A DNA stretch of 64,000 bases, taken from the sequence record PP400788. One strand, 5' to 3'. The translations under genes were made by a program, and so were the position numbers. Below the pieces are notes generated by a model. That model did not search any database. It was not told where the DNA came from and saw only the letters and a program-made list of their open reading frames with translations. The stretch's first letter is position 1, and every line of letters begins with the position of its first letter. Below, one piece after another: positions 42,076 to 49,295 of this stretch. The DNA comes from Escherichia phage FL33.

Positions 42076-43245
42076 TTAAAAGTATTTTTTAAAACTCATC
42101 ATAACTTTATCATCAACATCATTATCAATCTGTGCAACAAGGTAAGATGACAGTTCTACTTCTTGTGGCGCGGATTGAACATTATCAGAATTAAGATATT
42201 CACGAATCCAAGGATATGGATGTTTAACCGGAGCATCGGTAATTGGGCATGGAAGACCACACTGTTTCATACGAGATACAGTTAAGTAATCAATAAAGCT
42301 CCACATGCTATTTGTATTTAATCCAGGAACATCACCATCTTTAAATAAATGAACTGCCCAATCTTTTTCTTGGCGGTTAACTTCCATGAAAATATCAACT
42401 GCTTCTTGTTCACACTCTTGAGCAATTTTAACCCATTCATCGCCATCAGTGCCAAGTTGAAGTTGACGAATAATATATTGGGTGCCTTTAAGGTGAAGCT
42501 GCTCATCACGAGCAATGAACTTCATAATCTTGGCATTACCTTCCATGATTTCCATGTTTTTGTGGAAGTTAAATGTACACGCGAAAGATACGTAAAAACG
42601 AATAGCTTCCAGGGCGTTGATTACATGAAGGCAAAGATAAAGAGATTTCATTAGTGCTCGTTTAGTACATTCAACAACTTTGCCTAACTCTTCTTTACGA
42701 AATCCTTCTGATAAAATTCCTTCATAATCTTCAACCGCATTCTGATATTCACGAGTCTTAACTAGAACATCATCGTAATAGCGACCAATGGACTCGGCAC
42801 GTTTCATAATAGCTTTATCTAATACAATCTCATCAAATACCTTTGACGGATCAGTATAAAGATTTCGCATAATATGAGTGTATGAACGACTGTGAATAGT
42901 TTCACTAAAAGTCCATGTAGCAACCCATGTATCAAGACTTGGGTCTGAAATTAACGACATAAGTACAGCAGACGGCGCACGACCCTGAATGCTATCCAAA
43001 AGTGATTGATACTTCAAGTTATTAGTAAAAATATCTTGCTGATATTGAGGAAGCTTGTTAAATTGTGCAGCATCCATCATCAAGTTTACTTCTTCAGGAC
43101 GCCAGAAAAATGACAACTGCTTTTCGGTTAAATCTTCAAAAACTTTATGACGTTGAATATCATAACGCGCAATACCAAGACCTGAACCGAAGAACATAGG
43201 TTCTTTTAAAACATCAACTGGATTTGTATTAAAAACTGTGCTCAT
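42076..43245 (-). CDS. nrdB: ribonucleotide reductase small subunit NrdB (uninterrupted)
   Basis: 389-aa continuous ORF with class Ia R2 features; no intron. Confidence 0.95.
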   Translation of the reverse strand: MSTVFNTNPVDVLKEPMFFGSGLGIARYDIQRHKVFEDLTEKQLSFFWRPEEVNLMMDAAQFNKLPQYQQDIFTNNLKYQSLLDSIQGRAPSAVLMSLISDPSLDTWVATWTFSETIHSRSYTHIMRNLYTDPSKVFDEIVLDKAIMKRAESIGRYYDDVLVKTREYQNAVEDYEGILSEGFRKEELGKVVECTKRALMKSLYLCLHVINALEAIRFYVSFACTFNFHKNMEIMEGNAKIMKFIARDEQLHLKGTQYIIRQLQLGTDGDEWVKIAQECEQEAVDIFMEVNRQEKDWAVHLFKDGDVPGLNTNSMWSFIDYLTVSRMKQCGLPCPITDAPVKHPYPWIREYLNSDNVQSAPQEVELSSYLVAQIDNDVDDKVMMSFKKYF

Positions 43246-43296
43246 AAATTTTCCGCTTAGTTAATAGATAGTGACTCGTCCGTGAGTCAAATTATA

Positions 43297-44286
43297 TCAT
43301 AATTTACAGGATGAACAATCTTCAGCTTTTGGAGTTTCTATTTCATAATCATCAGTACCAGAACCATCACGGGTATTATGATAATAGAAATTTTTTCCGC
43401 CAAAATACCAAAAATACAAAAGGTCATCAATCATTACAGACATTGGAACCTTTCCTTTTGGAAAAATCTGCGGGTCATAATATGTATTCGCTGAAGCTGA
43501 TTGACATACCCATTTCAGCATAATAGCTACCTGCGTAAGATAAGGTTTATTACCTTTCTTAGCTAATTTCCATGTATAATCATAGAGGTCTATGTTATGT
43601 TCAATATTGGGCACGACTTGATTAAAGGAACCCTCTTTTGATTCTTTAACCGAGACTGGTCCACGTGGAGGCTCGATACCATTTGTACTGTTAGAAACTT
43701 GGGAAGATGACTCACATGGCATAAGTGCTGATAATGTGCTATTACGGATGCCAAAGAGCTTAAGGTCTTCCCGCAGCGACGACCAGTCACAAACGTATTT
43801 TGGAGCTGCGATTTGGTCAATCTTTTTATTGTACCAGTCGATAGGTAATTCGCCTCGAGACCAACGAGTGTCTGAATAATATTCGCAAGGTCCTTTTTCT
43901 TTGGCGAGCTTAATGGATGCTTTGATGAGTCCATACTGTAATCTCTCAAATAGTTCATGTGTTAAATCGTTAGCATCTTCATAAGAAGCAAAGTTACTTG
44001 CCAGCCAAGCTGCATAGTTAGTAACACCTACACCAAGATTTCGACGCTTTTTAGCTTTTTCTGCTTCAGGAACTGGATATCCTTGGTAATCCAAAAGATT
44101 ATCAAGAGCACGAACTTGAACTTCTGCTAATTCATTAATTTTATCTTGGTCTTGCCAATCGAAGTTATCTAATACGAATGCGCTAAGGGTACAAAGCCCC
44201 ACTTCTCCCTTGTTTTCAATAACTTCTATTGTAGTATACTCATCATCTTCGTAAAATTCATCTACAAATTCATAATCAATATTCAT
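43297..44286 (-). CDS. nrdA: ribonucleotide reductase large subunit NrdA, C-terminal piece
   Basis: 329 aa; own ATG; ...GEVGLCTLSAF...NSTLSALMP...GIEPPRG... to C-terminus CSSCKL, aligns with E. coli NrdA from ~residue 455. Confidence 0.9.
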   Translation of the reverse strand: MNIDYEFVDEFYEDDEYTTIEVIENKGEVGLCTLSAFVLDNFDWQDQDKINELAEVQVRALDNLLDYQGYPVPEAEKAKKRRNLGVGVTNYAAWLASNFASYEDANDLTHELFERLQYGLIKASIKLAKEKGPCEYYSDTRWSRGELPIDWYNKKIDQIAAPKYVCDWSSLREDLKLFGIRNSTLSALMPCESSSQVSNSTNGIEPPRGPVSVKESKEGSFNQVVPNIEHNIDLYDYTWKLAKKGNKPYLTQVAIMLKWVCQSASANTYYDPQIFPKGKVPMSVMIDDLLYFWYFGGKNFYYHNTRDGSGTDDYEIETPKAEDCSSCKL

Positions 44287-44986
44287 TTAATTCTTCTACC
44301 TTTTTTCTAGTAATTCCTAAAGCTTTAGATGCTCGATGTATTGATTGATATTCTATACCGTTTATTTTTACAGCAATTAAGTTATGGGGTTTTAATCCCT
44401 TTGGATGAGGTTTACTGACGAAAACTAAATTATCAAGCTCTGAAATCTTATCCAATTTCTTACACTTAAATCCTTTGTGATGCGACCGTTTACCTTTACA
44501 AACGGCTGACATAGTAGACGGATTTAAATTATGCTCTTTACAAAATTCGTTAAGACCTCGATGAATTTCCTCATGACCATCCGGAAATGTAAACACCCAA
44601 GATGTTTGAAGTCGAGATTTAACTTCTGGAGACATAGGAATACCTTTGTTCCAAGCTGGTTTGCCTTTATTATTTTCAGATACAGAAATAGCCAATTTTC
44701 TTCTAAGCCACCCATGACGTTTATTGGTGTTCTTTCGTTCAATATTATCTTCAGAATAAACACACATCATATTAGCAGCAAATATCAATTTATGATTATC
44801 TGGATATATCTTTACTAATAATTGATGAGCTATGTAATGCTCTTCTGGTGTCAAATCTACCAGGTTTTCCTTTGTATCAGAACCACCAATACACAGAGGT
44901 ATAATATGGTGTGATTCGGTATAGCAATCTAATTTTCTGTTCTTAGCTTTAGAAATAAGGTTATTGTAAATTTTAGAATAATCCAT
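44276..44986 (-). CDS. HNH homing endonuclease (MobE-like) inserted in nrdA
   Basis: 236 aa; HNH motif HHIIPLCIGGSDTKENLVDLTPEEHYIAH, NUMOD-like GKPAWNKG / KPHPKG repeats, C-terminal HTH; GAGG RBS upstream. Confidence 0.85.
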   Translation of the reverse strand: MDYSKIYNNLISKAKNRKLDCYTESHHIIPLCIGGSDTKENLVDLTPEEHYIAHQLLVKIYPDNHKLIFAANMMCVYSEDNIERKNTNKRHGWLRRKLAISVSENNKGKPAWNKGIPMSPEVKSRLQTSWVFTFPDGHEEIHRGLNEFCKEHNLNPSTMSAVCKGKRSHHKGFKCKKLDKISELDNLVFVSKPHPKGLKPHNLIAVKINGIEYQSIHRASKALGITRKKVEELNEY

Positions 44987-45031
44987 AACTTTTCCTCTTG
45001 TTATGGATTATTTATTAACGGTCTGTGTACT

Positions 45032-46465
45032 TTATTTGCTTTGAATTATACCGCCAGGATTAGCTTCATAAAACTTAGCTACATCCGACTTCTTAATTTT
45101 GATTAAACGGGTTTGTTGGCTATTCACATCATTTGTTGGAATAGCAATTTCACAGCACAAGTTACTCTGACGAATAGGTGCCTTTTCACGAATAAACGGA
45201 GTATAGTTATTCGTATTATCAATGAACTGCACATAAATCCTTGCTGTTCCTGAGCGTTCAGTCATGAGTAATTCAAATAGTTCACGGGCTTTAATACGCT
45301 TTTTACGAATATTAGGGTCTTTTTCTGCGGCTTCGTACAATTCACGGAAACGGTCTTGGTCTTTAAAATAAGAATAATAAAGCTCGCCACCCATTTCATG
45401 CGGACTGAACAAAGTAATGTAGTCGTTCTTTCCAAAACGTTCCATCATCAAATCATTCAGCTGGACGCCATAATCCATATGACGGATACGGTTTTCTTCT
45501 ACGCCTTTGTTATTTTTCAAAACGAGAAGATTTTCAACTTCCAAATGCCAAATAGGATAATAAGCAGTAGCAGCGCCGCCACGAATTCCGCCCTGTGAAC
45601 ATGATTTAACAGCAGTCTGAAAATGTTTCCAAAAAGGAATAACACCAGTATGACGCACTTCACCTGTGCCAATCTTAGAACCTTCGGCACGAATCATACC
45701 AACGTTAATACCAATTCCAGCGCGTTTGGAGATATATTCAACAATTGAAGCAGAAGCCTTATTGATAGACTTCAGCGAATCACCTGCTTCAATAACAACG
45801 CATGAACTAAATTGCCGAGTCGGAGTACGACAACCAGCCATAATAGGAGTTGGCAATGAAATCTGTCGAGTAGATACTGCTTCATAAAAACGAATAACAT
45901 GTTTTAATCTGTCAACAGGTTCATCTTGATGCAATGCCATTCCAATAGTCATAAATGCAAACTGTGGAGTTTCATAAATTTGACCAGTGGTTTTATCTTT
46001 AACGAGATATTTTTCTTTTAATTGCATCGCCCCGGAATAAGTAAATTCCATATCCCGCTCGTGCTTAATTTTTGATTCTAAAAATGTAATTTCTTCTGCA
46101 GAATATTTTGACAACAATTCAGGGTCATATTTACCTTCATTTACACAGTAAGAAATATGGTCAATAAATGAACGTGGTTCATACTGACCGTAAACATGCT
46201 TACGAAGAGCAAACATTAAACAGCGTGCAGCTACATATTGATAATCAGGCTCTTCAACTGAAATAGAATTCGCAGCAGCCTTAATTACAATGGTTTGAAT
46301 GTCATCAGTGGTCATTCCATCACGGAGATATGATTTAATATTTTCATATAATTCATAAGGATCTACAGATGTTCCTTCAGCTGCCCAAGATAAAACTTTA
46401 ATAATTTTTTGCGGGTCAAAGCTTTGAGAAACACCACTACTTTTGATAACATTAATTAATTGCAT
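45032..46465 (-). CDS. nrdA: ribonucleotide reductase large subunit NrdA, N-terminal piece
   Basis: 477 aa; ATP-cone N-terminus through ...PIRQSNLCCEIAIPTNDVNS, then a 28-aa non-homologous tail and stop. Confidence 0.9.
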   Translation of the reverse strand: MQLINVIKSSGVSQSFDPQKIIKVLSWAAEGTSVDPYELYENIKSYLRDGMTTDDIQTIVIKAAANSISVEEPDYQYVAARCLMFALRKHVYGQYEPRSFIDHISYCVNEGKYDPELLSKYSAEEITFLESKIKHERDMEFTYSGAMQLKEKYLVKDKTTGQIYETPQFAFMTIGMALHQDEPVDRLKHVIRFYEAVSTRQISLPTPIMAGCRTPTRQFSSCVVIEAGDSLKSINKASASIVEYISKRAGIGINVGMIRAEGSKIGTGEVRHTGVIPFWKHFQTAVKSCSQGGIRGGAATAYYPIWHLEVENLLVLKNNKGVEENRIRHMDYGVQLNDLMMERFGKNDYITLFSPHEMGGELYYSYFKDQDRFRELYEAAEKDPNIRKKRIKARELFELLMTERSGTARIYVQFIDNTNNYTPFIREKAPIRQSNLCCEIAIPTNDVNSQQTRLIKIKKSDVAKFYEANPGGIIQSK

Positions 46466-46782
46466 AAGTCCTCAACTTGAAAATCGTCTTTAAACAATCG
46501 GTTAACTATATGAGCTATTATATCACCATGACACGGCTTTGGTTTACATGTGCATCCTAGCCTCATTCCACGTAAAGGCTCTAAATGTGCTTTAGTTATT
46601 TCTCCGGATTTAATTCGACGTATAAAATCTTTTTTGAATAATTCAATGGCAGCCTCCCGGCTGCCAGCATCTTTACCGACGTAATTTCCCCAAAATGTAC
46701 CACGGTGAATATTAACATCAAAGTCGGATTTATATTTATTCACTACCTGGCATAGACGGCCCGCGCGGTGATAATTCGTCAT
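46456..46782 (-). CDS. hypothetical Cys/His-containing protein upstream of nrdA
   Basis: 108-aa ORF overlapping nrdA start; [11 protein letters not shown] motif. Confidence 0.6.
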
Positions 46783-46999
46783 ATTGTTTTTCCGTTAAAA
46801 CAGTAATATCATAGTAACAATCTGAAGAAGTTTTAACTGTAGAAATTTTATTATCAAAATACTCACGAGTCATTTTATGAGTATAATATTTTTTGCCATA
46901 AATGATAATAGGCTGATTTGGTCCTGGAACTTCTAACTCACTTGGGTTAGGAAGTGTAAAAAGAACTACACCAGAAGTATCTTTAAATCGTAAAATCAT
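46736..46999 (-). CDS. hypothetical protein
   Basis: 87-aa ORF between td and nrdA cluster. Confidence 0.5.
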
Positions 47000-47022
47000 A
47001 TATCCTCACAATTAATAATTAA

Positions 47023-47334
47023 TTACACCGCCATTTTTCCTTTCAAGACGCCGTGGGACTGATAATCTTTGAGAACGAAATCTTTAGGCCTGAGTTTAAG
47101 AATGTATTCCAATTGTTCTTTAGTAGAAAGATAGCGGAATTTATAAGGCAATCCGCCTATTACCAGTTCACAAAGCTCTTTAGGTTCACGACGCAAAATT
47201 TCTTTACATTGTTCTACGTGATTCATATAGATATGAGTATTACCACCGGAAAATATCAAATCTCCCGGAATAAGATTACACATCTTAGCTACAATATGAA
47301 CTAACGTAGCATATGATGCAATATTAAATGGAAG
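47023..47334 (-). CDS. td: thymidylate synthase, exon 2
   Basis: 103 codons LPFNIASYATLVHIVAKMCNLIPGDLIFSGGNTHIY... to stop, continuing exon 1 ...VDVFLG. Confidence 0.95.
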   Translation of the reverse strand, partial: LPFNIASYATLVHIVAKMCNLIPGDLIFSGGNTHIYMNHVEQCKEILRREPKELCELVIGGLPYKFRYLSTKEQLEYILKLRPKDFVLKDYQSHGVLKGKMAV

Positions 47335-48350
47335 CATTATGTTCAGATAAGGTCGTTAATCTTACCCCGGAATTATATCCAGCTGCATGTCACCATGCAG
47401 ATCAGACTATATCTCCAACTTGTTAAAGCAAGTTGTCTATCGTTTCGAGTCACTTGACCCTACTCCCCAAAGGGATAGTCGTTAGGCATTTATGTAGAAC
47501 CAATTCCATTTATCAGATTTTACACGATAAGTAACTAATCCAGACGAAATTTTAAAATGTCTAGCTGCATCTGCTGCACAATCAAAAATAACCCCATCAC
47601 ATGAAATCTTTTTAATATTACTAGGCTTTTTACCTTTCATCTTTTCTGATATTTTAGATTTAGTTATGTCTGAATGCTTATGATTAAAGAATGAATTATT
47701 TTCACCTGAACGATTTCTGCATTTACTACAAGTATAAGCAGAAGTTTGTATGCGAACACCGCACTTACAAAACTTATGGGTTTCTGGATTCCAACGCCCG
47801 TTTTTACTTCCGGGTTTACTGTAAAGAGCTTTCCGACCATCAGGTCCAAGTTTAAGCATCTTAGCTTTAACAGTTTCAGAACGTTTCTTAATAATTTCTT
47901 CTTTTAATGGATGCGTAGAACATGTATCACCAAACGTTGCATCAGCAATATTGTATCCATTAATTTTAGAATTAAGCTCTTTAATCCAAAAATTTTCTCG
48001 TTCAATAATCAAATCTTTCTCATATGGAATTTCTTCCAAAATAGAACATTCAAACACATTACCATGTTTGTTAAAAGACCTCTGAAGCTTTATAGAAGAA
48101 TGGCATCCTTTTTCTAAATCTTTAAAATGCCTCTTCCATCTCTTTTCAAAATCTTTAGCACTTCCTACATATACTTTATTGTTTAAAGTATTTTTAATCT
48201 GATAAATTCCGCTTTTCATAAATACCTCTTTAAATATAGAAGTATTTATTAAAGGGCAGTCCTACAATTTAGCACGGGATTGTCTACTAGAGAGGTTCCC
48301 CGTTTAGATAGATTACAAGTATAAGTCACCTTATACTCAGGCCTCAATTA
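47335..48350 (-). mobile_element. td group I intron (1016 nt) carrying I-TevI
   Basis: Exon 1 ends at ...FLG with in-frame TAA as first intron codon; exon 2 resumes at 47334; boundaries placed by protein homology. Confidence 0.9.
47482..48219 (-). CDS. I-TevI: I-TevI GIY-YIG intron homing endonuclease
   Basis: 245 aa; MKSGIYQIKNTLNNKVYVGSAKDFEKRWKRH... with zinc finger and C-terminal DNA-binding domain. Confidence 0.95.
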   Translation of the reverse strand: MKSGIYQIKNTLNNKVYVGSAKDFEKRWKRHFKDLEKGCHSSIKLQRSFNKHGNVFECSILEEIPYEKDLIIERENFWIKELNSKINGYNIADATFGDTCSTHPLKEEIIKKRSETVKAKMLKLGPDGRKALYSKPGSKNGRWNPETHKFCKCGVRIQTSAYTCSKCRNRSGENNSFFNHKHSDITKSKISEKMKGKKPSNIKKISCDGVIFDCAADAARHFKISSGLVTYRVKSDKWNWFYINA

Positions 48351-48899
48351 ACCCAAGAAAACATCTACTGATCGTTGATACCACTGCAAATCCAAATAGC
48401 CATTACGCACATTAAACTGATAGAACATATGACAAGGCGGTAATGCCATCTGCTTGAGTTCAGCTGGATTCCATGCTGAAACAATTTGACGCCTATCATT
48501 TGGCAATTTTTTAATACGATCAATAACTTCTATAATTTGGTCTACACCACCAAAATCACGCCACTGTTTTCCATAAATTGGACCAAGTTCACCGCTATGG
48601 TATCCTAAATCTTTTGCTTGATTTTCGTAATTTTCATCCCAAACTGTTTTGCCTTGGATTAACGAATCATGTTGAATTAATCGCAAATCATTTACGTTAG
48701 TACTTCCTGACAAAAACCATATTAGCTCAGCAATACAAGCTTTCCAGGCGAGCTTCTTAGTCGTTACTGCAGGAAAACCTTTAGTTAAATCCCAGCGTAA
48801 TTTAGTACCGAACAAAGCAATTGTTCCTGTGCCTGTTCGGTCATCGGTTTCATAGCCATTTTCAAAAATGTCTTTAATTAAATCTTGGTATTGTTTCAT
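48351..48899 (-). CDS. td: thymidylate synthase, exon 1
   Basis: 183 codons MKQYQDLIKDIFENGYETDDRTGTGTIALFG... incl. active-site region ALPPCHMFYQF. Confidence 0.95.
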
Positions 48900-48944
48900 T
48901 TAGTACCTTATATAAATTATAATACATTTTATGAAGCTAAATAA

Positions 48945-49295
48945 TCAATACGGTTTAGCATCAAATTTTCTTTCAATTTCAGGCGTGAAATACAATTCTT
49001 TACCGCGTTTGGAAAAGCGACCAATAATATGATAATTATTCTCATCAAACGTAATATTGCCAATATCCATAGCTTTCAACCAAATATCGATATTTCTATC
49101 CAGTTTTATATCAAAATTCCAATACGGAGAACTATTACCGAAAATACTGCAAGCGGATTCAGTGCAATAACTGCTGCTATAAATCTTGTCTTTGGGAACT
49201 ACTAATTGATAGACGCCTTTGATAAACTGAGGACCCTGCCATTTTGGTTGTTTCGCGTCTTTTTCTAATAGAATAGGATAATAATTAAAGTTCAT
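48945..49295 (-). CDS. hypothetical protein inserted between frd and td
   Basis: 116 aa from ATG 49295 (120 aa if GTG 49307); no recognisable motif; fills a gap that is absent in T4. Confidence 0.55.
   Translation of the reverse strand: MNFNYYPILLEKDAKQPKWQGPQFIKGVYQLVVPKDKIYSSSYCTESACSIFGNSSPYWNFDIKLDRNIDIWLKAMDIGNITFDENNYHIIGRFSKRGKELYFTPEIERKFDAKPY

Follow-up and report, generated by a model that had tools for sequence, protein, structure and literature searches.

An HNH endonuclease cassette with charged peptide tails divides nrdA in Escherichia phage FL33 and its relatives, a probable Aeh1-type gene in pieces

Introduction

In a 64,000-nucleotide stretch of Escherichia phage FL33 (sequence record PP400788; hereafter the window, which is 100% identical to Escherichia phage FL34), the minus-strand nrdA gene for the RNR large subunit is divided in two by a 236-aa HNH gene, leaving an N-terminal piece of 477 aa and a C-terminal one of 329 aa. 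This arrangement raises the question of what kind of element interrupts the gene and whether two separately encoded halves can still provide a working enzyme. A genes-in-pieces RNR, nrdA-a / mobE / nrdA-b of phage Aeh1, is reportedly the subject of Friedrich et al. 2007. The same Aeh1 arrangement was addressed by Crona et al. 2011 (PMC3045599). Considering both the sequence comparisons and the analogy with Aeh1, we favor, at a probability of roughly 0.88, a cassette-split nrdA of this type, in which assembly and homing would proceed as proposed below.

Organization of the split nrdA locus

The features of the locus are given below by position in the window.

42076-43245, minus strand: nrdB, 389 aa, the uninterrupted partner small subunit, 51 nt downstream of nrdA-C
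43297-44286, minus strand: nrdA-C ORF, 329 aa
43297-44199, minus strand: nrdA-C core, with the second barrel half, the CTLS cysteine and the C-terminal CSSCKL (from the ORF, Pfam and PP01)
44170-44199, minus strand: recoded GLCTLSAFVL codons, including the Cys462 equivalent, immediately 3' of the cassette
44200-44286, minus strand: N-terminal leader of nrdA-C, MNIDYEFVDEFYEDDEYTTIEVIENKGEV, the end of the cassette
44276-44986, minus strand: HNH gene, a split-type MobE homing endonuclease of 236 aa (from Pfam and Aeh1 MobE homology)
44977-45012, minus strand: RNA hairpin whose 3' arm contains the HNH AUG (from folding and covariation)
44987-45031, minus strand: 45-nt intergenic region, with a GTACA motif at 45026-45030 and the late-promoter-like AATAAATA at 45009-45016
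45032-45118, minus strand: C-terminal tail of nrdA-N, QQTRLIKIKKSDVAKFYEANPGGIIQSK, plus stop, the first part of the cassette, absent from intact alleles
45032-46465, minus strand: nrdA-N ORF, 477 aa
45119-46465, minus strand: nrdA-N core, NrdA residues 1-449 (from the ORF, Pfam and the PP01 comparison)

The initial annotation had described nrdA as two ORFs with an HNH gene between them, and all three ORFs lie on the minus strand exactly where it placed them. The nrdA-N core comprises the ATP-cone, the all-alpha domain and the first barrel half with the NLCCE active-site loop (Pfam matches to the ATP-cone, RNR all-alpha and barrel positions 1-221), and nrdA-C matches barrel positions 219-523. 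Relative to the intact nrdA of phage PP01, nucleotide identity is 97.6% for nrdA-N as far as 45120, and identity is 99% for the nrdA-C core. The intact PP01 allele (754 aa) reads ...NDVNS-PDAEI-GLCTLSAF; nrdA-N reads ...PTNDVNS followed by the 28-aa tail, and nrdA-C consists of an acidic leader, the last five residues of which are the counterpart of PDAEI, and then GLCTLSAF, such that zero NrdA residues are lost when the insertion is mapped against PP01. An alignment to intact NrdA had been suggested for fixing the breakpoint, which falls between the equivalents of E. coli NrdA D454 and E455, in the loop that separates the C439/E441 strand from the C462 strand. Two further claims are borne out: the break parts the active-site elements, with NLCCE encoded by the N piece and CTLS by the C piece, and the HNH gene and nrdA-C share 11 nt that run from the nrdA-C ATG to the HNH stop, as seen in GAATTAAATGAATATTGA. 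mobE is absent between nrdA-C and nrdB in FL33, and T4 has a single nrdA (2265 nt) with mobE between nrdA and nrdB, as the initial annotation stated.

The NUMOD/HNH character attributed to the middle ORF also holds in Pfam, where the I-HmuI_NUMOD-like match reaches 36.7 bits (cut-off 27) and the HNH match is weak, at 18.2 bits and below its 21.4-bit gathering threshold. The HHIIP...NLV...EH motif of the enzyme aligns with the MobE proteins of T4 and Aeh1. Among 50,697 phage records, Aeh1 MobE finds its closest relative in this endonuclease, by reciprocal best match (46% identity over 227 of its 236 aa, E 3e-58); the best non-self matches of Aeh1 MobE are coliphage enzymes at 44.5-47.6%, followed by a next tier at 31% from other contexts. 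Identity with T4 MobE, about 45%, is limited to the N-terminal HNH domain.

Distribution and mobility of the cassette

The cassette spans 919 nt (44200-45118, minus strand) and is made up of the tail, the hairpin, the HNH gene and the leader. The cassette was found in 34 phage records and, among metagenomes, in seven lineages, always inside nrdA. These seven metagenomic intermediates, at 50-67% identity, all have a split nrdA, and a relative at 40% shows no split. Between phages AV111 and HY01 the cassette is 99.9% identical and the host nrdA 77.8%, while between FL34 and HY01 the cassette is 91.0% identical and the host nrdA 98.4%. Presence/absence polymorphism occurs in both nrdA lineages. 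Because nearly identical genomes differ in carrying the cassette, and it is common to the two nrdA lineages, these patterns constitute direct evidence of its mobility; as far as allele comparison can show it, the cassette moves horizontally as a unit. The comparison of nine lineages also gives evidence for regarding the tails as cargo of a mobile element and not as a local accident.

At the right junction, the 30-nt recoded zone carries many synonymous differences from the intact allele, with the remaining flank being 99% identical, and the junction is mosaic, the switch to host-type sequence falling at a different point in each split allele. This GLCTLSAFVL zone is probably a target-site or co-conversion zone. 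Cassette variants diverge in one swapped block alone. Split-type and T4-type MobE are both present in IME537 and L013, and their occurrence together indicates paralogs with different sites.

Peptide tails and selection on the two halves

The 28-aa tail of nrdA-N had been called unrelated, a description that has to be corrected: alignment shows it to be a homolog of the NrdA-a tail of Aeh1, just as the acidic leader of nrdA-C is of the Aeh1 NrdA-b tail, and both Aeh1 tails are essential for activity (PMC3045599). The nrdA-N tail is basic (pI 10.0, net charge +3.8) and the nrdA-C leader is acidic (pI 4.05, net charge -10.5), compared with +6.0 and -10.4 in Aeh1. In nine lineages, the core L[IVF]K[IV][KR]Kx[DE][IV]xxF of the basic tail is kept, with up to five synonymous codons used for its invariant residues, and YED[DE]EYTT in the acidic leader is almost invariant. 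Despite extensive synonymous variation, these tail motifs are better conserved than the endonuclease across the nine lineages. That coliphage alleles show no change in the N tail and spacer, on the other hand, is not evidence of selection, because the divergence between variants is confined to the one swapped block. A profile search with an 88-aa leader alignment returned short fragments alone and is uninformative on distribution.

In Aeh1, tails that were without database matches in 2010 are retained on the mature proteins, as determined by mass spectrometry, and their deletion lowers activity about 2000-fold (PMC3045599). By analogy, the basic and acidic tails of FL33 probably serve to reassemble the NrdA halves, and the conserved motifs LIKIKKSDVxKF and EFYEDDEYTTIEV may represent a portable heterodimerisation pair.

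With regard to selection, dN/dS is about 0.11 for the nrdA-C core, about 0.08-0.16 for both halves between split lineages (whose endonucleases are as diverged as NrdA) and about 0.11-0.24 for the HNH gene between lineages, all of these values being rough because dS is saturated. At the level of codon comparison, purifying selection is shown for the NrdA halves, the tails and the endonuclease.

Spacer, hairpin and translational control

The intergenic region is invariant among coliphage alleles, and an xATAAATA-like box together with the GTACA motif is present in nine of nine lineages. AATAAATA matches TATAAATA at 7 of 8 positions, which makes it a candidate late promoter. The hairpin has a 13-bp stem and a 10-nt loop containing a GAGG Shine-Dalgarno sequence, with a predicted dG of -13.8 kcal/mol (z -4.5), a stability reached by 0 of 200 shuffles. 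In the alignment, 98.4% of cells are paired, as against 26-45% when it is slid, and three pairs have changed on both sides; stable hairpins are also found in other lineages, including the characterised one of Aeh1. A hairpin over the endonuclease start would match the way in which translation of Aeh1 mobE is known to be controlled.

Translational coupling of nrdA-C to the HNH ORF, which the initial annotation derived from the overlap, is unlikely as the main route, since the HNH start is covered by the hairpin, nrdA-C has its own SD-like purine run upstream of its ATG, kept by every lineage, and each Aeh1 polypeptide is translated on its own (PMC3045599, Fig. 5 legend). A TGTAC-centered sequence of 5-8 nt per lineage is shared, in addition to 10 nt between Aeh1 and the coliphage target; as a lead that is not claimed here, the GTACA after the N-piece stop could be an operator mimicking the homing site.

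Proposed mechanism

The cassette encodes, in order, a basic tail that continues the reading frame of the upstream NrdA half, a stop, the 45-nt regulatory spacer, the MobE-type HNH gene, and an acidic leader that has its own start codon and reads in frame into the downstream NrdA half. Judging from Aeh1 (PMC3045599), the two NrdA polypeptides would be translated separately and then form a heterodimer; driven by the opposite tail charges, an active (a/b)2 large subunit would form and bind NrdB2, and neither RNA nor protein splicing would be involved. Function is transferred here from Aeh1, the NrdA of which is only 50-58% identical to that of FL33; a tail-dependent active holoenzyme, as in Aeh1, has indirect support in the purifying selection described above. 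Under the T4/Aeh1 paradigm (PMC2988022), the hairpin would block endonuclease translation from the early nrdA operon mRNA, and a late transcript, beginning within the 5' arm of the hairpin downstream of AATAAATA, would free the start codon. The allele patterns further suggest that the endonuclease cleaves close to the GLCTLS codons of intact nrdA alleles and that repair copies in the entire cassette, so that a single homing event would turn an intact gene into a working two-piece gene.

A broader proposition, to which we give even odds, is that the cassette is a self-sufficient split-and-repair element with its own two assembly peptides of opposite charge and its own translational lock, generating a functional two-piece gene in one homing event. 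If so, coding sequence could be invaded by a third route, beside introns and inteins, and one seen actively crossing the nrdA lineages of E. coli phages. The swapped DNA-binding block (HNH residues 118-189) and the GLCTLSAFVL codons, hypervariable at synonymous positions, would then record a continuing conflict between target and endonuclease.

Alternative explanations

Could the HNH ORF instead lie in a group I intron, with splicing restoring a continuous nrdA mRNA? Introns in the RNR genes of T-even phages are a classic finding, the neighboring td gene in the window carries a group I intron, and an HNH ORF in a peripheral intron loop is possible in principle. However, an Rfam scan of 43000-49000 with E values up to 10 recovered the td intron core as a positive control (42.5 bits, E 1.6e-8) and gave no intron (RF00028) match in nrdA (43000-46500); a scan of the whole window at the gathering threshold gave zero matches, the td intron included, and is uninformative. 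The flanking tails, moreover, are kept as protein in nine lineages with synonymous codon turnover, and they show an in-frame stop and a conserved ATG preceded by the SD-like run. The homologous arrangement in Aeh1 yields two tail-bearing polypeptides (PMC3045599) and has been described as being without a self-splicing intron (PMC3653736). An intron is thus extremely improbable, and the initial annotation's preference for an Aeh1-type gene in pieces is supported by the MobE homology and the use of the same loop as well as by the Rfam result. The tails and HNH gene could also be a degenerate or split intein, the halves being joined by protein trans-splicing, an origin that Crona et al. raised as possible (PMC3045599). 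RNR active-site loops are intein hot spots, charge complementarity is also known for split-intein halves, and a real intein lies 12 codons upstream at locus L014. This explanation is nevertheless highly improbable: the tails are short (28 and about 24 residues), neither NrdA piece has a Hint/intein Pfam match, although the L014 intein was found by the same kind of annotation, the junction ...NKGEV|GLC does not have a C-terminal HN followed by Cys/Ser/Thr, and mature Aeh1 proteins retain their tails.

It is also conceivable that the insertion killed nrdA, that the phage uses the host NrdAB, and that the ORFs are intact because the event is recent. A table in PMC5931544, which cites Miller 2003, gives T4 nrdA as dispensable, or auxiliary, in nrd+ hosts; a split without function could therefore last for a while, and the recent spread of the cassette among coliphages, at 99.9% identity, would leave little time since insertion in any single genome. 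Such a dead gene is quite unlikely, as both halves are intact in the 34 records and the seven divergent metagenomic lineages, with the low, if rough, dN/dS between split-bearing lineages noted above, the tail motifs are conserved beyond the endonuclease, and the Aeh1 homolog is fully active (PMC3045599). A sequencing or assembly artefact, or a chimeric contig, is ruled out by the identical structure in 34 phage records that many laboratories deposited independently, to which several metagenome assemblies can be added.

Comparison with known systems

The closest known system is the split nrdA of Aeh1. FL33 and Aeh1 share the insertion loop, the homologous HNH endonuclease, the basic C-tail and acidic N-leader, similar product lengths (477/236/329 aa in FL33 and 473/237/323 aa in Aeh1), a 45- or 46-nt spacer, an endonuclease stop overlapping the downstream ATG, a hairpin over endonuclease translation initiation and an AT-rich cassette. 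They differ in that FL33 is a T4-like coliphage with nrdA in the canonical td-nrdA-nrdB-denA position, whereas the Aeh1 operon is relocated: its nrdA is absent from the T4-syntenic td-denA position and the adjacent region and is located at 41-45 kb. The FL33 hairpin has its AUG in the stem and its SD in the loop, in contrast to the SD in the stem of the Aeh1 hairpin, and the two sequences differ. In addition, the coliphage cassette is present or absent in otherwise nearly identical genomes, while Aeh1 is a single isolate.

T4 MobE shares the HNH domain and the RNR gene neighborhood, but this 141-aa enzyme is free-standing and intergenic and splits no gene; in the split-type enzyme, the C-terminal DNA-binding part is longer and of a different kind. 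T4 MobA (gene 39/60) is likewise an HNH Mob endonuclease flanked by extensions (CTE/NTE) on split-gene halves; its right junction has a homologous replacement region, and it has inserted multiple times in different phages (bioRxiv 10.1101/2022.08.31.505936). Its topoisomerase target and extension sequences are different, and nothing comparable to its 50-nt translational bypass is seen in FL33. A 2022 preprint mentions such split cases as unpublished. The intron-encoded HNH/GIY-YIG endonucleases of T4 (I-TevI, I-TevIII) and RNR inteins also target conserved active-site-coding DNA of nucleotide-metabolism genes, and the T4 intron endonucleases are subject to late-promoter plus hairpin translational control of the kind proposed for FL33 (PMC2988022). 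With introns and inteins, however, RNA or protein splicing regenerates the host product, whereas in FL33 a ribozyme core and a Hint domain were not found and repair would occur by non-covalent assembly.

Implications

The split RNR of Aeh1 is the textbook example of a homing-endonuclease break repaired without splicing, and it has rested on one Aeromonas phage. The FL33 locus is a second, E. coli-tractable lineage of this arrangement. Since the same cassette occurs in close T4 relatives growing on E. coli K-12, T4 genetics, crosses and RNR biochemistry become directly applicable, and the nine-lineage comparison offers conserved tail motifs as mutation targets together with a covarying regulatory hairpin. 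On the practical side, annotation pipelines mis-handle the split nrdA locus: in HY01 neither nrdA half is annotated, and other records list two separate 'alpha subunits'.

Locus Architecture

Escherichia phage FL34 (PP400789.1), a T4-like myovirus, is 100% identical to the window, and its name is used below. A T4-type block lies on the minus strand: frd, td (with an I-TevI intron), nrdA.2, nrdA.1, nrdA, nrdB, denA and rnlA. The positions of three ORFs given for nrdA in the initial annotation were exactly confirmed, as was the 11-nt overlap between the HNH stop and the nrdA-C ATG:

45032-46465, minus strand: nrdA-N, ORF of 477 aa
44276-44986, minus strand: HNH ORF, 236 aa
43297-44286, minus strand: nrdA-C, ORF of 329 aa

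By Pfam, the ATP-cone and all-alpha domain fall on the N piece together with barrel positions 1-221, and barrel positions 219-523 fall on the C piece; the ORF between them has an above-threshold match to I-HmuI_NUMOD-like and a weak one to HNH. T4 itself, as the initial annotation stated, has a single 754-codon nrdA and a 141-aa mobE between nrdA and nrdB. The proposed alignment of both parts to an intact NrdA, that of phage PP01 (754 aa, ...PTNDVNS-PDAEI-GLCTLSAF...), fixes the breakpoint: DNA homology extends on the upstream side to 45120 (97.6% over 1381 nt) and restarts cleanly at 44181 (99.0% over 982 nt). The N piece follows NrdA through NDVNS and then adds QQTRLIKIKKSDVAKFYEANPGGIIQSK (the tail) and a stop, while the C piece begins with MNIDYEFVDEFYEDDEYTTIEVIE-NKGEV-GLCTLSAF, its leader included; NKGEV replaces PDAEI, so that all NrdA residues are retained. 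The inserted unit, or cassette, spans 919 nt (44200-45118) in the order tail, 45-nt spacer, HNH gene and leader, and is richer in AT than nrdA (GC content 32% vs 37-38.5%). In E. coli NrdA numbering, the break falls between D454 and E455, in the loop connecting the C439/E441 strand with the C462 strand.

Downstream, a terminator-like hairpin, TGACTCACGGACGAGTCA (43272-43289), lies inside the 51 nt that separate nrdA-C from nrdB (43246-43296) and may be the counterpart of the nrdA-nrdB terminator discussed for T4 (PMC2988022). FL34 has no T4-MobE-like gene downstream of nrdA-C and no nrdB intron. In IME537 (L011 3504-4235) and a metagenomic locus (L013 4169-4810), a canonical T4-MobE-like gene (~61% identical to T4 MobE) is found between nrdA-C and nrdB, which places NrdA-C between two paralogous HNH genes.

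Homology to the Aeh1 Element

In Aeromonas phage Aeh1, the split operon (NC_005260, 41.5-44.6 kb) encodes nrdA-A of 473 aa, mobE of 237 aa and nrdA-B of 323 aa, with a 46-nt spacer (45 nt in FL34) and a 14-nt stop/ATG overlap (11 nt in FL34). Aeh1 MobE and the FL34 endonuclease share 46% identity over 227 residues (E 3e-58). When Aeh1 MobE is queried against the phage collection, the best non-self matches are these coliphage enzymes (44.5-47.6% over 95%), followed by a tier at ~31% adjoining helicase genes. On sequence grounds, the FL34 element is the Aeh1 element.

The N tail, regarded as unrelated sequence in the initial annotation, proves to be homologous to that of Aeh1 (FL34 RLIKIKKSDVAKF vs Aeh1 MLFKVKKSEVDKF), and so are the C leaders (FL34 YEDDEYTTIEVIE vs Aeh1 YEDEEYTTVEIEV). 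Their charges are alike, at +3.8 (tail) and -10.5 (leader) in FL34 and +6.0 and -10.4 in Aeh1. In Aeh1, both tails are kept in the mature proteins, their deletion lowers activity ~2000-fold, and they are required for (a/b)2 formation, not for a/b pairing (Crona et al., PMC3045599); in 2010, they had no database match (PMC3045599). These parallels support the view that the FL34 tails are functional homologs. The genes-in-pieces mechanism very probably holds for the window's nrdA (probability about 0.88), with function transferred from a homolog at 50-58% NrdA identity.

In Aeh1 (NC_005260), nrdAB is absent from the td-nrdA.1-denA-rnlA block; the split operon lies ~160 kb away, at 41-45 kb, so the cassette occupies nrdA loci of differing placement.

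Alternative Explanations

A group I intron would equally interrupt nrdA, and one is present nearby: td is split by such an intron (47338-48347, minus strand) with an I-TevI-like GIY-YIG ORF (47482-48219). An Rfam scan of the window at gathering thresholds gave no matches and is uninformative, because it also missed the td intron. A scan of 43000-49000 in E-value mode recovered the td core (RF00028, 47383-47613, 42.5 bits, E 1.6e-8) and gave no intron-like match within 43000-46500 at E up to 10, which supports the original preference for an Aeh1-type split. The td score lies below the 50-bit cut-off, so ORF-bearing introns can be missed by default scans. An intein is likewise disfavored: Pfam detected no Hint or intein domain in either NrdA part, and the HN-plus-nucleophile signature is missing from the junction residues. 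For comparison, the 614-aa NrdA-N of a metagenomic locus (L014, ERZ14207129 NODE_16, 607-2451) contains a real intein (PT-HINT, Intein_splicing) that ends ...HN|CLEIAIPT. This intein sits just before the catalytic Cys439-equivalent, and the MobE-split site follows only ~12 codons further downstream; one active-site loop is occupied by two different mobile elements.

The N-tail peptide is found in 34 phage records (hosts Escherichia, Shigella, Yersinia and Salmonella), set against ~830 records with T4-like nrdA; since these 34 records, from many groups, have the same structure, an assembly error is excluded. The insertion might also have left a dead nrdA, but between split-bearing lineages both NrdA parts and the endonuclease have a dN much lower than dS, which is saturated: dN/dS is ~0.08-0.16 for NrdA-N and NrdA-C and ~0.11-0.24 for the endonuclease.

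Conservation across Deep Lineages

Protein searches yielded full-length endonuclease homologs in a graded series from 82% to 45% identity. Among eight genomic contexts checked, all seven relatives at 50-67% identity lie inside nrdA with an identical layout, and one at 40% has an unrelated context. Across nine lineages, the cores L[IVF]K[IV][KR]Kx[DE][IV]xxF (N tail) and EYE[IF]VxEFYED[DE]EYTT[ILV][EQ][IV] (C leader) are conserved; as many as five synonymous codons encode an invariant tail residue, which places the constraint on the protein. Endonuclease divergence roughly tracks that of NrdA, which fits an old association overlaid by recent spread among coliphages.

Spacer Hairpin and Translation

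A hairpin in the spacer region (44977-45012) has a 13-bp stem; its loop holds a GAGG Shine-Dalgarno sequence, and the HNH AUG falls within the 3' arm (dG -13.8 kcal/mol, z -4.5; 0/200 shuffles equally stable). In the five lineages with an FL34-type hairpin, 98.4% of cells pair, vs 26-45% with the partner slid; at three pairs both partners are altered (A-U/G-C, C-G/U-A, A-U/G-C), in one case through the second endonuclease codon. The other lineages, Aeh1 included, have stable hairpins of their own (z -3.4 to -7.4), and sequestration of the mobE ribosome-binding site by the hairpin has been shown experimentally in Aeh1 (PMC2988022; PMC3045599 Fig. 5 legend). Every spacer contains an xATAAATA-like box; that of FL34, AATAAATA (45009-45016), overlaps the hairpin's 5' arm and is a putative late promoter (7/8 consensus match), a combination resembling I-TevI and Aeh1 mobE. 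The operon mRNA probably does not allow HNH translation, so nrdA-C is unlikely to depend on the translational coupling once suggested; in all lineages, an SD-like purine run lies 6-14 nt upstream of its ATG.

Just past the NrdA-N stop, the motif [AT]AG[TC]GTACA[TC]A recurs in 9/9 lineages (window 45026-45030; L012-L018; Aeh1 locus L005), sharing TGTAC with the Cys-Thr codons of the insertion site. An RNA processing site is one possible role; another is an operator that, like that of I-TevI, imitates the homing site. The Aeh1 spacer also has a 10-nt match, GTGTACGTTA, to intact coliphage nrdA.

Horizontal Mobility of the Cassette

Segment-wise comparison revealed strongly discordant cassette and host gene identities.

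Segment-wise identity of host nrdA and cassette
AV111 (annotated Mosigvirus) vs HY01 (Tequatrovirus): host nrdA 77.8%, cassette 99.9%
FL34 vs HY01: host nrdA 98.4%, cassette 91.0%

Many cassette-free alleles occur in both nrdA lineages at ≥95% identity; together with the discordance, they indicate that the cassette, tails included, transfers horizontally as a unit. Its left junction is sharp. On the right, the GLCTLSAFVL codons form a synonymous mosaic whose switch point to host-type sequence differs per allele, a pattern that independent recombination endpoints or target-site protection would give. Divergence between FL34-type and HY01-type cassettes is confined almost wholly to one ~250-nt block (window ~44420-44635; HNH residues 118-189, a NUMOD-like DNA-binding region), with up to 19/50 nt different. 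Because divergence is limited to this block and F2 is intermediate there, it looks like a recombinational module swap, which might alter target recognition.

Relation to Published Work and Annotation

The Aeh1 split nrdA system was reportedly described by Friedrich in 2007. It is well described by Crona 2011 (PMC3045599), and a 2022 preprint (bioRxiv 10.1101/2022.08.31.505936) refers to such cases as unpublished, with 'MobE_split' sequences in a supplementary file. A literature search found no description of the split in HY01, vB_EcoM_112, UFV-AREG1, fPS-90 or PEC04. The tail homology between lineages, the quantitative evidence for mobility of a tag-bearing cassette between nrdA lineages, and the hairpin covariation go beyond the published work found. 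The phenomenon is striking yet known, and the present case is of value as an instance tractable in E. coli and for its comparative data set. Annotation pipelines treat split nrdA inconsistently: the HY01 GenBank record (KF925357.1, L008 336-3504) annotates the endonuclease and neither nrdA part, and other records enter two separate 'alpha subunit' genes.
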